The position numbers and the translations under genes are program-made. Shown here one piece after another: positions 17,244 through 21,124 of a stretch of 44,488 nucleotides of DNA (the stretch's first letter is position 1; each line of letters starts with the position of its first letter). The notes below the pieces were generated by a model. The model was not told the origin of the DNA and made no database searches. It saw only the letters and a list, made by a program, of their open reading frames with translations. Source of the DNA: Escherichia phage vB_EcoD_Opt212; the sequence record NC_073055.1; one strand, given 5' to 3'.

Positions 17244-18668
17244 ATGGCACGTTTCCGACGTCGCGAATATCAGAAGTTGATAACCGCGTTCATCCTCAAG
17301 CATAAGCGCTGCAATATTTGGGCGACAATGGGGTCGGGTAAAACCGGCGCGACCATGTGGGCGCTGAATAAAATGTTCCAGACTGGCATCCTGTCCAACC
17401 AGGATGACCGCGTACTGGTGCTGGCCCCGCTGCGCGTTGCGTCCGGCACATGGCCCCCGGAACAGGAGAAATGGCGCTTCCCAGCCTTGCTGGTAGTAGA
17501 CGGCACTGGGCCAGAGAAGGACCGCATCGCTGCGCTTGAGAGCGACGCTAACGTGGTTTGTATTAACTATGATGTAGTTGAGTGGCTGGTCGACTATTAC
17601 GGCGATGCGTGGCCCTTTACGGTCGTTGTTGCCGATGAATCGACTAAGCTGAAAGGCTATCGTAGCAAGCAGGGGAGCAAGCGCGCCCGCGCACTGGCAG
17701 CGATTGCACATAAACACGTCAAGCGCTGGATTAACCTTACCGGCACACCCGCACCAAACGGACTGAAAGACCTATGGGGGCAAACGTGGTTCATCGACGG
17801 CGGCGAACGCCTCGGCAGTAGCTATAAGGCATTTACCGACCGCTGGTTCATTAGCAAGCCTGTTAAGCCTGGCAGCTTCACTATGCAGCACGCTCCGCTA
17901 AAGAACTCCGAGAAAGAGATACAACAACGTCTGTCAGATGTATCCCTCACCGTTGACGCGGCGGAATACTTCGGGTGCGACAAGCCAATCTATACGCCGG
18001 TTGTTGTGGACCTGCCGAAGAAAGCGCGTAAGATTTATGACCAGTTTGAAAGCGAGCTATTTGCAGAACTGGAAAGCGGAACAGTGGAAGCGGCGAACGC
18101 GGCGTCGAAGACAATTAAGTGCCTTCAGCTTGCTTCCGGCGCGGTGTATAAGGTGGACGAAGACGGCGAACGGACCGACGAGTGGGTGAAGATTCACGAC
18201 GCGAAGCTGGACGCGCTGGAAAGTATCGTGGAGGAGTTGAACGGTGCGCCGTTGCTCGTTGCGTATCAGTATAAGCATGACCTGGCACGTCTTAAGAAGA
18301 AATTTCCGCACGGCGTTGCGTTGGGTAAAGGAAAGCAGGGCAATAAGGATATGGAAGCATGGAACAGGGGCGAGATCCCCATCATGTTTGCACACCCGGC
18401 ATCGGCGGGCCACGGCCTTAACTTGCAGGACGGCGGTCATCACCTGGCAATCTTCTCCGACACCTGGAACTTTGAACACTTTTCGCAGATCGTTGAACGT
18501 ATCGGGCCGGTTCGCCAGATGCAAGCCGGACACCCTCGACCAGTATTCGTCTACATTATCCAGGCTCGCGGGACACTGGACGAATTGGTCGCCGAGCGTC
18601 GCGACAGTAAGCGAGACATTCAGGACGACTTGATGGAATACATGAAAGCTAAGAAGGCGCGCAAATGA
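17244..18668 (+). CDS. SNF2-family (DEAD-like) helicase
   Basis: 474 aa; Walker A GSGKTG; DExx box VVADEST; LTGTPAPN motif; start moved to ATG after upstream stop. Confidence 0.85.
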   Translation: MARFRRREYQKLITAFILKHKRCNIWATMGSGKTGATMWALNKMFQTGILSNQDDRVLVLAPLRVASGTWPPEQEKWRFPALLVVDGTGPEKDRIAALESDANVVCINYDVVEWLVDYYGDAWPFTVVVADESTKLKGYRSKQGSKRARALAAIAHKHVKRWINLTGTPAPNGLKDLWGQTWFIDGGERLGSSYKAFTDRWFISKPVKPGSFTMQHAPLKNSEKEIQQRLSDVSLTVDAAEYFGCDKPIYTPVVVDLPKKARKIYDQFESELFAELESGTVEAANAASKTIKCLQLASGAVYKVDEDGERTDEWVKIHDAKLDALESIVEELNGAPLLVAYQYKHDLARLKKKFPHGVALGKGKQGNKDMEAWNRGEIPIMFAHPASAGHGLNLQDGGHHLAIFSDTWNFEHFSQIVERIGPVRQMQAGHPRPVFVYIIQARGTLDELVAERRDSKRDIQDDLMEYMKAKKARK

Positions 18669-18865
18669 CTATTGCGAAAATGACAATCTGGTCACTGTTT
18701 GACGGCAGCGGCTTTCGTATGCCAGAGAAAAAGCCTGTATTCGTTGAAAAAGGGTACTCGAAGCAGTATAGTCGCCTCGGAGGCAAATCAGCCCGCACAA
18801 AATTAATCCGGTCGCTCACTCCGCGCGGCTTCGCGATAGCGGTTAACGAGGAAAATTTAAAATGA
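18665..18865 (+). CDS. hypothetical protein
   Basis: 66 aa, ATGA overlaps. Confidence 0.45.
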   Translation: MTIAKMTIWSLFDGSGFRMPEKKPVFVEKGYSKQYSRLGGKSARTKLIRSLTPRGFAIAVNEENLK

Positions 18866-19213: not shown

Positions 19214-19246
19214 AAGGGTGTTCCGAAGGGAACGCCCTTTTTTTTA
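19214..19246 (+). terminator. rho-independent terminator
   Basis: GGGTGTTCC/GGAACGCCC stem followed by T8. Confidence 0.65.
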
Positions 19247-19262
19247 ATATGAGGATTTGACG

Positions 19263-19505
19263 ATGAAACGATTCTTTTTAGATTACGACGGTGATTTGCG
19301 GTTATGGGTGTGCATGGTGCTGTTCTTATTCTTTTGTCTCCTGCTGCCGATTTCCTGCACGTATAACCTCGATAAATATGAATGCCGTATTGTCTACGCA
19401 GAACTAACAGGTCGTAACACCCAGTGGCGCTATGGCACTTGCTGGGTTGAAATGGATGGCAAATTTATACCACGCAAAGAAATTCGCATGACGGAGATTA
19501 AATAA
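19263..19505 (+). CDS. small membrane protein
   Basis: 80 aa; hydrophobic segment WVCMVLFLFFCLLLPI; GAGGA RBS. Confidence 0.5.
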   Translation: MKRFFLDYDGDLRLWVCMVLFLFFCLLLPISCTYNLDKYECRIVYAELTGRNTQWRYGTCWVEMDGKFIPRKEIRMTEIK

Positions 19506-19963
19506 TGAAAATTTTACAAGAAGAGAAAGCGTATTGGGTAGCACAGTGTCTTGAAGCCCGCGAGAAAGCGGAAGGAGCTACCGCGCTGGCAAATACCTAC
19601 CTGGCTAGCTATGAAGAAGAAGAGAAGGTCCGAAAGGAATTAGAGGAACGCTTCGAACTGCTGGGCGAACTGATTACCATTATGCAGCGCACCGGATACA
19701 CAACATCCGTATCGCTCACCCGGCTAACTGCCGATGGTCTGCGTGAGCATTGCAAACGTGCAGAAGAATACGTCCGACCGAAAGGACGCACAACGAAGAT
19801 CGACCGTAAAGACTTGGTGCTTATCGCGTGGCGAGCAAACGGCAGCTACTATTCCGATAGCCGACCGCTCAGTAGGGCGGAGCTATCCCGAGTCCAACGC
19901 GTGCTATCCAGTGGCAAGAAAACCGCCCTGTATGCGATAGATCCCGACTATGACGGAGAATGA
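19505..19963 (+). CDS. hypothetical protein
   Basis: 152 aa, coupled to flanking genes. Confidence 0.55.
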   Translation: MKILQEEKAYWVAQCLEAREKAEGATALANTYLASYEEEEKVRKELEERFELLGELITIMQRTGYTTSVSLTRLTADGLREHCKRAEEYVRPKGRTTKIDRKDLVLIAWRANGSYYSDSRPLSRAELSRVQRVLSSGKKTALYAIDPDYDGE

Positions 19964-20435
19964 GCAAAAAGATAGCTGGCGCACGCCGCCAGCTTTATTT
20001 AAACCGCTTCGTCGGAAATACCGATTCCGTTACGATATGGCGGCAAGCGACGCCAATCATCTGCTACCGCGTTACTTCACGGCGGAACACAGCGCGCTTG
20101 ATGTGGACTGGTCCGAGTTGAAAGGGTGGAAGTGGTGCAATCCGCCGTATTCCGATCCGCTGCCGTGGGTAGAGTGCGCAGCGCACGGACGCCGGACGGT
20201 CATGCTACTGAATCAGGACACGTCGACGAAGTGGGCGAAGCTGGCCAGGAAGACTGCAAACCTGATAATTCTTCTGGACTGGCGGATTAGATTCATTCAC
20301 GCCGTCACCGGCGAGGTCGGGCCGAGCAATAACAAGTGCCAGCAATTGATAATCTTTGACGAAGCGCTACCGACCGGCAGCGCAAAAATTGAAATAATGA
20401 GCGAAGGAGAACTCCTTGAATATCTTAATCGTTGA
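19950..20435 (+). CDS. DNA N6-adenine methyltransferase (phage Dam-type)
   Basis: 161 aa; WCNPPYSD catalytic motif; pattern typical of small phage Dam-like MTases. Confidence 0.8.
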   Translation: MTENEQKDSWRTPPALFKPLRRKYRFRYDMAASDANHLLPRYFTAEHSALDVDWSELKGWKWCNPPYSDPLPWVECAAHGRRTVMLLNQDTSTKWAKLARKTANLIILLDWRIRFIHAVTGEVGPSNNKCQQLIIFDEALPTGSAKIEIMSEGELLEYLNR

Positions 20436-20640
20436 CCGCAGCCTCGCGGTCGTAGACCAAATGCAAAAAGACTTCTGCATCGATCCACGCCGCGATCGTG
20501 TGCATCGCGTGTTGCGGCCTGAACACCTCCTGGGCATGGACCTTACCGGCTGGCTTGTCATAACCCGACGTTGCCATTTCGTGTGTAACTCCTTCACCGC
20601 GCGCAGCGCCCGACAGACCCTTATTGAGAGCTTAAAATGA
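20416..20640 (+). CDS. hypothetical protein (TTG start)
   Basis: 74 aa; GAAGGAGA RBS 6 nt upstream of TTG; overlaps Dam end and next gene start. Confidence 0.35.
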   Translation: MNILIVDRSLAVVDQMQKDFCIDPRRDRVHRVLRPEHLLGMDLTGWLVITRRCHFVCNSFTARSARQTLIESLK

Positions 20641-21107
20641 AACTACTGATTTGTGATCTTGATGGCGTTATTAATGGTTCGAGTGATGCACGCGCCGACC
20701 TGGTTCCGGGTATAAAAACCAAATCAACATTTTGGGCGAAGTGGCACAAAGCGCACGTACGCGAAGACCTGAACATGGATATGCTGCCGCTGCTGCGCAT
20801 GTACAAAGAGCAAGGCTTCGAGATAGCGTATCTGACTAACCGGCAGCGCGAATGCTGGGAGACAACCGCCGAGCAACTGGAGGTCTTCCCCGCAGGGCGG
20901 TTGTTTATGCGCCACATGCTGGACGACACCCCTCCGCCTGAGTTTAAGGCGTGCGCCGTGTTCAAGATGGTCTGCTATGCAGACGTGTCGGAACTGGTCA
21001 TCATTGAAGATTGCGAGAAGAACATCGCGGCAATTCGTCGGGCGTGCAGCGATCTGGTGCCGAAAATTTACGCAATAAATGTTGCAAAATTTACTTGCAA
21101 CCAATAG
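20637..21107 (+). CDS. HAD-superfamily phosphatase/nucleotidase-like protein
   Basis: 156 aa; N-terminal LICDLDGVI (DxDG motif). Confidence 0.6.
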   Translation: MKLLICDLDGVINGSSDARADLVPGIKTKSTFWAKWHKAHVREDLNMDMLPLLRMYKEQGFEIAYLTNRQRECWETTAEQLEVFPAGRLFMRHMLDDTPPPEFKACAVFKMVCYADVSELVIIEDCEKNIAAIRRACSDLVPKIYAINVAKFTCNQ

Positions 21108-21124
21108 GTTGGTTGCACTATAGT
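21095..21124 (+). promoter_or_regulatory. candidate promoter TTGCAA-N18-TATAGT overlapping palindrome TTGCAACCAAT-AGG-TTGGTTGCA
   Basis: direct reading. Confidence 0.35.

Follow-up and report, generated by a model that had tools for sequence, protein, structure and literature searches.

A Dam-like methyltransferase gene and an overlapping TTG-initiated ksap1 ortholog in Escherichia phage vB_EcoD_Opt212

Introduction

In the genome of Escherichia phage vB_EcoD_Opt212, a gene for a Dam-like methyltransferase overlaps at its 3' end with a small open reading frame that appears to start at a TTG codon. This arrangement raises the question of what the two genes encode, whether the small one is translated from its unusual start, and whether its product serves the methyltransferase. 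The window analyzed was the complete genome of this phage, a Dhillonvirus (44,488 nucleotides, NC_073055.1). The best explanation as a whole, to which a probability of about 0.9 is given, is an orphan phage Dam followed by a TTG-started ksap1, an ortholog of the phage protein sensed by the immune protein Avs2.

Results

Organization of the dam-ksap1 locus

Together, dam and ksap1 make up a two-gene unit that is conserved and lies in the early/DNA-metabolism part of the genome. The region was matched by 156 Dhillonvirus records with nucleotide identities of 60-95%. Its features are as follows.

19214..19248, + strand: intrinsic-terminator-like hairpin with a T-run (11-bp stem with 6 G-C, then TTTTTTAATA)
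19505..19963, + strand: gene for a 152-aa protein, 5' of dam (phrog_10530, E=1.2e-85)
19950..20435, + strand: dam, 161 aa, ATG start (ORF coordinates, Pfam PF05869, phrog_111)
20034..20048, + strand: DMAAS motif, Dam residues 29-33 (homolog alignment, alignment to T1 Dam)
20139..20150, + strand: NPPY catalytic motif IV, Dam residues 64-67 (read from the sequence, homolog alignment)
20403..20410, + strand: Shine-Dalgarno site GAAGGAGA of ksap1, within the dam coding sequence (read from the sequence)
20416..20640, + strand: ksap1, 74 aa (TTG 20416-20418, TGA 20638-20640; RefSeq P9600_gp38)
20637..21107, + strand: HAD-type phosphatase (PNK-phosphatase-like), 156 aa, 3' of ksap1 (phrog_415, E=3.1e-36)

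Five genes between positions 19257 and 21107 were linked start to stop by overlaps, and the hairpin, which was called by a consensus scan only, marks the upstream limit of this string. The last 14 nt of the upstream 152-aa gene are shared with the start of dam, and ksap1, read in the +1 frame with respect to dam, shares its first 20 nt with the end of dam. The label 'DNA ligase' that phrog_10530 confers on the 152-aa gene is doubtful because its product is much too small for such an enzyme and had no Pfam match. The phosphatase gene gave a weak Pfam HAD IIIB match and is labelled 'putative phosphatase' in phage Oekolampad. Its ATG overlaps the ksap1 TGA (ATGA, 20637-20640), an overlap that the earlier note on this DNA had missed. 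A Dcm gene near dam-ksap1 carries an in-frame internal deletion in Opt212, whereas the close relative SM_W22 has an intact Dcm.

Family membership and specificity of the methyltransferase

The proposal of the earlier note that the first gene encodes a Dam-like methyltransferase with an NPPY motif was borne out. The protein matched Pfam family PF05869 over residues 2-138 with 124 bits (gathering cut-off 28.1, E=6.7e-36) and phrog_111 'DNA methyltransferase' with E=3.6e-55, and its homologs in phages Oekolampad and bob are annotated as Dam-like N6-adenine methyltransferases. In the homolog alignment P66 and Y67 of the NPPY motif were invariant and N64 and P65 nearly so, while D29, M30, A31 and A32 were also invariant. 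The DMAAS motif, which is presumably an AdoMet-binding, motif I-like element, aligned with L-D-A-A-A-S of T1 Dam, and the two NPPY motifs aligned with each other. The dN/dS among relatives was 0.077.

The PF05869/TIGR01712 family comprises orphan phage enzymes such as T1 Dam, M.EcoVT2Dam of Stx phages and HP1/HP2 Dam, with which the Opt212 enzyme shares the NPPY motif IV after a D-x-A-A-S motif. Against the NCBIfam equivalog TIGR01712 (phage N-6-adenine-methyltransferase) it scored 87.7 bits, short of the 97.05 bits set as curated cut-off; going by these profile scores, Opt212 Dam is a member of the PF05869 family but no certified TIGR01712 equivalog. Hia5-type non-specific adenine methyltransferases were considered as relatives and rejected, as these enzymes of 281 aa, with DPPY and FxGxG motifs and an alignment to DpnII and EcoDam, belong to a different family.

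The target is probably GATC. M.EcoVT2Dam is stated to target GATC (PMC6602927), and adenine methylation at GATC is known from T1 and TLS DNA (PMC11447400). The Opt212 enzyme would most likely methylate GATC on replicating phage DNA in the same manner, an assignment that draws, like any part in evading restriction, in mismatch repair or in packaging, on relatives at 31-37% identity only. In the literature searched, no methylation data were found for Opt212 or any Dhillonvirus. An enzyme of this family with another or a relaxed specificity is an unlikely alternative; protection against GATC-targeting restriction and effects on packaging or mismatch repair, which the earlier note had proposed, would then not apply. 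Besides the TIGR01712 score, this alternative is favored by the distance from T1 Dam, which is 31% identical and has 237 aa as compared to 161 aa, with an N-terminal extension of about 55 residues and an internal insertion that are both missing in Opt212 Dam; the Stx-phage homologs are about 37% identical. The genomic frequency of GATC was also unremarkable, with 152 sites observed versus 171-194 expected, so that the sequence was not notably depleted. The catalytic and N-terminal motifs of Dam are nevertheless conserved, and the characterized relatives found in the literature were reported to be GATC-specific. As regards function, related small siphoviruses in the BASEL study showed no simple relationship between methyltransferase genes of the phage and resistance to restriction.

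Neither sequence nor profile searches with Dam gave a relevant match in the PDB, and no solved structure from which its recognition domain could be deduced was found there. The AF2 model, built from a 12-sequence alignment, had a pLDDT of 68, with values below 50 for residues 31-66, and a Foldseek search of the PDB with this low-confidence model was uninformative (best E 0.17, TM-scores <=0.31).

Conservation and selection of the small gene

Neither dam nor the small ORF is a chance reading frame. The small ORF was 100% identical to RefSeq P9600_gp38 of vB_EcoD_Opt212 and matched phrog_10685 over its full length (1-74 of 74, E=2.9e-43). All 47 database clusters consisted of proteins of exactly 74 aa, with identities down to 57%. 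The median dN/dS was 0.23 in the frame of ksap1. Of the other five frames, the antisense one whose third codon positions coincide with those of ksap1 gave 0.29, and the four in which they differ gave 1.2-1.7. An antisense ORF of 76 aa (20367-20597) was rejected, as stop codons interrupt it in every relative.

Start codon and ribosome-binding site of ksap1

The earlier note had also described the small gene as TTG-initiated and as overlapping dam behind a strong ribosome-binding site, and this description held. The AAGGAG core of GAAGGAGA ends 6 nt 5' of the TTG, inside the dam 3' end. Among 27 distinct alleles the start codon at this one shared position was TTG, ATG or GTG. A Shine-Dalgarno sequence with a GGAG core was present in 14 of 14 TTG/GTG alleles but in none of the 13 ATG alleles, all of which had a weaker Shine-Dalgarno sequence. 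For pairing with the 3' end of 16S rRNA, an energy of -8.8 kcal/mol was predicted for GAAGGAGA, while the ATG-start alleles ranged from -4.4 to -7.3 kcal/mol. Shine-Dalgarno strength thus covaries with the ksap1 start codon, which is a minor new point. The pN/pS values of TTG alleles (0.40) and ATG alleles (0.38) indicated the same constraint.

From sequence comparison, the TTG start is well supported. Ribosomes would initiate at this codon inside dam, aided by the near-consensus Shine-Dalgarno sequence located 6 nt 5' of it. TTG is in general a weak initiator, and the ORF could for this reason be silent. It could also be translated as a Dam-Ksap1 fusion by a +1 ribosomal frameshift; the +1 frame of ksap1 and the Shine-Dalgarno-like element just 5' of the overlap superficially resemble prfB. 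That the ORF is not translated separately is nonetheless hardly credible. In 13 alleles this codon is replaced by ATG and in 3 by GTG, which is sensible only if it is an initiation codon, and purifying selection was equal in TTG and ATG alleles. The overlap, CTC CTT GAA, contains neither a slippery site nor a stop-codon pause site, and the frameshift fusion was rejected. Phage Bas18 (Oekolampad), which has a TTG and a GAAGGAGA context identical to Opt212, is restricted by KpAvs2, and the tagged 74-aa protein binds and activates KpAvs2 when expressed alone (PMC11564622).

Identity of the 74-aa product with Ksap1

The product of the small gene had been called unknown in the earlier note, which has to be corrected. 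KpAvs2-stimulating protein 1 (Ksap1) was described as a trigger of the Avs2 immune sensor by Bechon et al. (Nat Commun 2024, PMC11564622); it is encoded by SECphi18 and other Dhillonviruses, and in phage SECphi18 it is a 74-aa protein flanked by methyltransferase and phosphatase genes. The Opt212 gene matched the published size and position, encoding 74 aa between a Dam-like methyltransferase and a phosphatase gene. The two proteins were identical at 60 of 74 residues (81%) over the full length without gaps, and the SECphi18 protein was found in its genome with K30, L39, L47, T50 and F60 as published. The 74-aa product is by its sequence an ortholog of Ksap1. Both proteins have the same length, gene position and predicted small alpha/beta fold, whereas SECphi18 ksap1 starts with ATG behind a weak Shine-Dalgarno sequence and Opt212 ksap1 with TTG behind a strong one.

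Published work shows Ksap1 orthologs to be present in infected cells. An ATG-initiated ortholog was enriched 60-fold by mass spectrometry in KpAvs2 pull-downs, which for this ortholog amounts to the proteomics check suggested in the earlier note; co-immunoprecipitation with KpAvs2 and toxicity upon co-expression were also reported (PMC11564622). EcAvs2 is likewise activated (bioRxiv 10.64898/2026.04.30.721860). Ksap1 orthologs directly bind the C-terminal sensor domain of the NLR-like Avs2 proteins KpAvs2 and EcAvs2, which turns on the nuclease/toxic effector of Avs2 and aborts the infection; the alleles shown to bind or activate Avs2 are those of SECphi18, Bas17 and Pal009 only (PMC11564622; bioRxiv 10.64898/2026.04.30.721860). 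Phages escaping KpAvs2 carried L47R, T50P or deletions in ksap1 (PMC11564622). As escape occurs by deletion, truncation or mutation of ksap1, laboratory growth does not require this gene.

Opt212 Ksap1 has L47 and T50, the residues at which mutation abolishes KpAvs2 activation, and an intact C-terminus, and L39 and F60 are the same as in SECphi18. The variants of four KpAvs2-restricted phages have L47, T50, F60 and full length in common, and all of these are kept in Opt212. Position 30 is His in Opt212, Lys in SECphi18, Arg in Bas17 and Val in Bas14 and Bas18. Since KpAvs2-restricted phages carry K, R or V there, the position is tolerant, but His30 occurs in no variant so far tested against Avs2. 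As the Opt212 allele keeps all residues shared by the variants of restricted phages, it is predicted to be sensed as well.

The three published specificity sites were among the most variable of the 74 positions (position 60 ranked 6th, position 30 8th and position 39 9th), while L47 and T50 were invariant in the 47 cluster representatives. This opposition of apparently hypervariable Avs2-contact sites and invariant L47/T50 is a small addition of the present analysis. The values for ksap1 were dN 0.229 and dS 0.903, and those for dam were 0.021 and 0.277, respectively. The high dN of ksap1 and its variable specificity sites may be read as signs of an arms race.

Structure and distant relatives of Ksap1

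The AF2 model of Ksap1 had a pLDDT of 93 and the order beta-alpha-beta-beta-beta-alpha. No Pfam or NCBIfam match was obtained, and in the viral structure library BFVD the protein matched only its own ortholog. Foldseek found no significant match in the PDB (best E 0.16, TM-scores <=0.53).

Ksap1 might be a degenerate response-regulator receiver-like or terminase-ATPase-like domain that takes part in DNA packaging or in signalling within the host. Foldseek gave marginal receiver-domain matches (E 0.26-1.5), as the original authors also saw (PMC11564622), and the N-terminal residues MNILIVDR look like those with which receiver domains begin. A beta-sheet-plus-helices topology like that of the terminase ATPase core was noted in the preprint (bioRxiv 10.64898/2026.04.30.721860). 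None of these matches was significant, however; Ksap1 is roughly half as large as a receiver domain and, as the authors reported, it has no phospho-acceptor aspartate (PMC11564622). It differs from a CheY-like receiver domain in both respects, significant similarity and the aspartate, and a relationship of either kind is very improbable.

For distant homologs, 1.84 billion representative sequences were searched with a full HMMER profile, which gave 5 matches. Two of them were useful (P0050 and P0052), and both lay in Dhillonvirus-like contigs. The Ksap1 relatives from these uncultured phages are 37-40% identical, and their genes overlap dam by 26 nt. A 1238-aa match (P0051) was a low-complexity repeat protein with no matched stretch and was treated as spurious.

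Relationship between Ksap1 and Dam

Ksap1 could be a partner of Dam, that is, a specificity, stability or regulatory subunit whose stoichiometry is set by translational coupling. The overlap of the two genes was retained in 32 of 32 loci examined, in the 37-40% identical relatives, and in phages KarlBarth, GeorgBuechner and L015, from which the phosphatase gene is missing. The numbers of records were also equal, with 156 phage records containing Dam (at least 80% identity) and 156 containing Ksap1. The synteny is, however, weak evidence because it was seen in one phage lineage only, and the PF05869 enzymes of T1 and Stx phages come without a Ksap1 homolog. The small ORF that follows T1 dam (ST19, 83 aa) was considered as an analogue of Ksap1 and rejected as unrelated (hhalign probability 0.1%). 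The two genes show no sign of co-evolving, as dam is nearly frozen and the divergence of ksap1 is tenfold faster, and phages with ksap1 deleted or naturally truncated are viable. Such a partnership is accordingly judged improbable.

A looser tie, in which Ksap1 acts as a methylation modulator or counter-defence partner of Dam and its dose is tuned by the matching of Shine-Dalgarno strength to the start codon, is equally improbable. It is supported by the retention of the overlap in the 37-40% identical relatives and in the phages without the phosphatase gene, and by the weak start codons always occurring with a strong Shine-Dalgarno sequence and ATG with a weaker one. If it applied, Avs2 would guard an anti-defence/methylation module and not a random accessory protein.

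Discussion

Both genes of the unit are already known: dam encodes an adenine methyltransferase of an ordinary phage type, and the small gene encodes Ksap1. For the phage, Ksap1 most plausibly serves as an accessory factor in counter-defence or host takeover, which Avs2 evolved to recognize. The growth of deletion mutants and the lack of a structural relative in the PDB and BFVD speak against an anti-defence role.

Other phage proteins are sensed by defences as well: Ksap2 and the large terminase by Avs2, Ocr by PARIS and ArdA by Ronin. Phage-encoded Dcm is a published trigger of retron Eco1, and phage Dam enzymes have been reported as triggers of retron Sen2. Like Ksap1, Ksap2, the large terminase, Ocr, ArdA and phage Dcm are phage-encoded patterns that trigger abortive infection. 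The large terminase is universal and essential, whereas Ksap1 occurs in one phage genus and close relatives (bioRxiv 10.64898/2026.04.30.721860). With Dcm, Dam and Ksap1, genes relevant to immunity seem to be clustered in the neighborhood of dam and ksap1.

The new points are minor: the covariation of start codon and Shine-Dalgarno sequence, the 37-40% identical Ksap1 relatives whose genes overlap dam, and the Dcm gene with its in-frame deletion. The locus encodes the published pattern by which NLR-like Avs2 detects Dhillonvirus, and the label 'unknown' would miss that. Hosts with KpAvs2- or EcAvs2-type sensors are predicted to restrict Opt212, unless His30 or a lower, TTG-driven expression permits escape. 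The covariation, the variable contact sites and the distant dam-linked relatives provide handles on what Ksap1 does for the phage.

Organization of the dam-ksap1 locus

Phage vB_EcoD_Opt212 belongs to the genus Dhillonvirus, and its whole genome of 44488 bp is the window. The ORF map agreed with the earlier note, which had described an ATG-initiated ORF with an NPPY motif and, overlapping it by 20 nt, a TTG-initiated ORF preceded by GAAGGAGA. A 2.2-kb region around these two genes, dam and ksap1, matched 156 Dhillonvirus records with 60-95% nucleotide identity.

Features of the locus
19214-19248, strong terminator-like hairpin upstream of the five-gene chain
19257-21107, five genes chained start-to-stop
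19950-20435 (+), dam, ATG start, 161 aa
20139-20150 (+), NPPY motif of dam, read in the ORF map
20403-20410 (+), Shine-Dalgarno sequence GAAGGAGA of ksap1, read from the sequence
20416-20640 (+), ksap1, TTG start, 74 aa
21095-21124, promoter-like site downstream of the five-gene chain

Two further overlaps were absent from the earlier note: ksap1 stops within ATGA (20637-20640), where its TGA overlaps the start codon of the gene that follows, and the upstream 152-aa gene and dam overlap by 14 nt. The 152-aa protein (19505-19963, +) matched phrog_10530, labelled 'DNA ligase' (E=1.2e-85), a label propagated in some phage records. As the protein is far below ligase size and had no Pfam or NCBIfam support, this annotation is probably wrong. 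A G+C-rich hairpin with 8 perfectly paired bp, AGCTGGCGCACGCCGCCAGCT (19974-19994), begins 11 nt past the stop codon of this gene, inside codons 1-15 of dam; it was scored as terminator-like on both strands and could influence translational coupling of dam.

The presence of the HAD/PNK-phosphatase-like gene downstream of ksap1 (20637-21107, +) varies between phages. Comparison of the window with L042, L044 (both phage records lacking the gene) and L015 (a contig of an uncultured phage) showed that it is not carried by KarlBarth, GeorgBuechner or the L015 phage; the gene directly after ksap1 in KarlBarth encodes a tail fibre and is on the other strand. The intergenic region 3' of the phosphatase gene (21081-21124, +) contains overlapping inverted repeats of TTGCAA/TTGCAAC units, GTTGCAAAATTTACTTGCAAC and TGCAACCAATAGGTTGGTTGCA, which overlap a promoter-like TTGCAA-18-TATAGT and could serve the next gene block as an operator or a regulated promoter.

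The ksap1 gene and its TTG start

The product of ksap1 was exactly 74 aa in all 47 database clusters, with a lowest identity of 57%, and the gene is unannotated in some genomes, e.g. that of phage bob. For 16 distinct 74-codon alleles, analyzed over codons 8-74 outside the dam overlap, the in-frame median dN/dS was 0.23. The four frames whose third codon positions differ from those of ksap1 gave medians of 1.2-1.7; the antisense frame with shared third positions gave 0.29. An antisense 76-aa ORF (20367-20597) was rejected, being interrupted by stop codons in every relative.

Among 27 distinct alleles from 32 loci, the start codon was TTG in 11, GTG in 3 and ATG in 13, an exchange at one position that marks it as an initiation codon. 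All TTG and GTG alleles had a Shine-Dalgarno sequence with a GGAG core (predicted duplex -8.5 to -8.8 kcal/mol), while all ATG alleles had a weaker one (-4.4 to -7.3 kcal/mol). This covariation does not reflect one inherited event, since nearest-neighbour alleles agreed in start codon in just 13 of 24 cases. TTG and ATG alleles were equally constrained (pN/pS 0.40 and 0.38, respectively). The small ORF is thus a real gene with TTG as its start, as the earlier note had proposed.

Identification of the product as Ksap1

The description of the 74-aa product as unknown is outdated. The protein is 100% identical to RefSeq P9600_gp38 of vB_EcoD_Opt212, and searching the literature for methyltransferases of Dhillonvirus brought up Ksap1 (Bechon et al. 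2024, PMC11564622), a 74-aa protein encoded between methyltransferase and phosphatase genes that triggers abortive infection by binding the NLR-like immune sensor KpAvs2. The ksap1 gene of SECphi18 was located in its record with K30, L39, L47, T50 and F60 as published, and 60 of 74 residues of its product are identical in the window protein. On the basis of this identity and the published work, the product of 20416-20640 is Ksap1, a known immune trigger. In that study Ksap1 was enriched 60-fold in KpAvs2 pull-downs from infected cells, as determined by mass spectrometry, and bound the C-terminal domain of KpAvs2 in vitro; all six escaper phages were mutated in ksap1 (L47R, T50P, a frameshift and deletions) (PMC11564622). 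According to a 2026 preprint, EcAvs2 is also activated by Ksap1, and such Avs2 triggers might be anti-defence proteins.

The window protein was compared with Ksap1 of the KpAvs2-restricted phages SECphi18, Bas14, Bas17 and Bas18 and with the truncated Ksap1 of the escaping phage Bas16. The window protein is full length and, like Ksap1 of each of the four restricted phages, has L47, T50 and F60. It has Leu at position 39, as do SECphi18 and Bas17, and His at position 30, a position occupied by K, R or V in the restricted phages. Recognition tolerates considerable divergence, because Ksap1 of Bas17 activates KpAvs2 (PMC11564622) at an identity to the window protein of only about 62%. Opt212 is therefore predicted from its sequence to be sensed by Avs2. 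The proteomics that the earlier note had called for was in effect done by mass spectrometry for the ATG-initiated ortholog. Indirect evidence for production of TTG-initiated Ksap1 comes from Bas18, which has an identical TTG/GAAGGAGA context and is restricted by KpAvs2 (PMC11564622).

The ksap1 gene evolves far faster (dN 0.229, dS 0.903) than the overlapping dam (dN 0.021, dS 0.277). By entropy among 47 cluster representatives, the published specificity positions 30, 39 and 60 ranked 8th, 9th and 6th of 74; a simple hypergeometric estimate that ignores relatedness puts the chance of all three given sites ranking among the ten most variable at about 0.002. The laboratory escape sites L47 and T50 were invariant. 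This pattern fits diversification at an immune-contact surface around a constrained core, which implies that the core serves some phage function.

The Dam methyltransferase

The claim of a Dam-family methyltransferase was borne out by a match of the 161-aa protein to Pfam PF05869 (124 bits, cut-off 28.1). The protein also matched phrog_111 and is annotated in related phages as a Dam-like N6-adenine methyltransferase. Relatives occurred in about 1,740 phage records; among them were Stx phages, whose enzymes were about 37% identical, and T1-like phages, with about 30% identity. Dam of T1 was 31% identical (E=1e-16), and the NPPY and N-terminal D-M-A-A-S motifs conserved among Dam homologs align in both. 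The T1 enzyme has 237 aa, and the 161-aa protein lacks its N-terminal extension and one internal insertion.

As GATC methylation was reported for M.EcoVT2Dam (PMC6602927) and T1/TLS DNA (PMC11447400), GATC is the best guess for the target of the window enzyme. This specificity stays provisional, because the NCBIfam equivalog TIGR01712 scored 87.7 bits, under its cut-off of 97.05, sequence search found no solved structure of the family, the AF2 model was too poor for use (pLDDT 68), and the literature search found no methylation data on any Dhillonvirus. The genome contains 152 GATC sites versus 171-194 expected, neither avoided nor enriched. In the BASEL study, methyltransferase genes of the related Drexlerviridae had no simple relation to restriction resistance, and Dhillonvirus phages were comparatively sensitive to restriction-modification systems.

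Near the locus, a 66-aa ORF (18665-18865, +) between helicase and HNH genes encodes what is left of a Dcm-like C5-cytosine methyltransferase after an in-frame internal deletion. Its residues 1-16 correspond to positions 1-16 of Dcm, and its residues 10-66 match positions 180-236 at 91%; the loss spans about 510 bp and takes in the catalytic core, and the junction sits in a short repeat (SLFDGSGF/CLWTGNGF). The full gene is kept in 25 of the 25 best-matching Dhillonvirus records, one of them 99.7% identical in the flanks. As retron Eco1 is triggered by phage-encoded Dcm, according to published work, the deletion looks like a natural escape-type allele.

Native role of Ksap1

The AF2 model of Ksap1 (pLDDT 93) has the order beta-alpha-beta-beta-beta-alpha. 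Foldseek against PDB gave nothing significant (best E 0.16); marginal matches to receiver domains were likewise seen by the authors of PMC11564622. In BFVD the sole match was its own ortholog. Ksap1 homologs have been stated to be confined to Dhillonvirus. When 1.84 billion proteins were searched in full with the profile, two more distant relatives emerged, 37-40% identical to the window protein, in uncultured phages with about 72% nucleotide identity to Dhillonviruses:

Distant relatives of Ksap1
L014 6001-6231, 76 aa, Logan contig SRR33991138_1760234
L015 6001-6255, 84 aa, Logan contig ERR13731138_9710

Both share the core G-x-x-L-x-G-W-L-V-x-T, which includes L47 and T50, and in both contigs a PF05869 dam shares its last 26 nt with the gene. 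Retention of the overlap at this divergence, and also in KarlBarth, GeorgBuechner and L015 where the phosphatase gene is missing, leaves room for Ksap1 as a functional partner of Dam. Such a partnership is nevertheless unlikely, as Ksap1 is absent alongside the Dam enzymes of T1 and Stx phages, dam and ksap1 gave no sign of co-evolution, and ksap1 is dispensable in the laboratory. In T1 (L045 39024-39985), the 237-aa dam is followed by a small ORF, ST19 (83 aa), with a 4-nt overlap at the dam stop; ST19 was rejected as a counterpart, having no detectable similarity to Ksap1. An accessory counter-defence factor seems the more likely role of Ksap1. The locus is of an already known kind, in a phage already sequenced and annotated.
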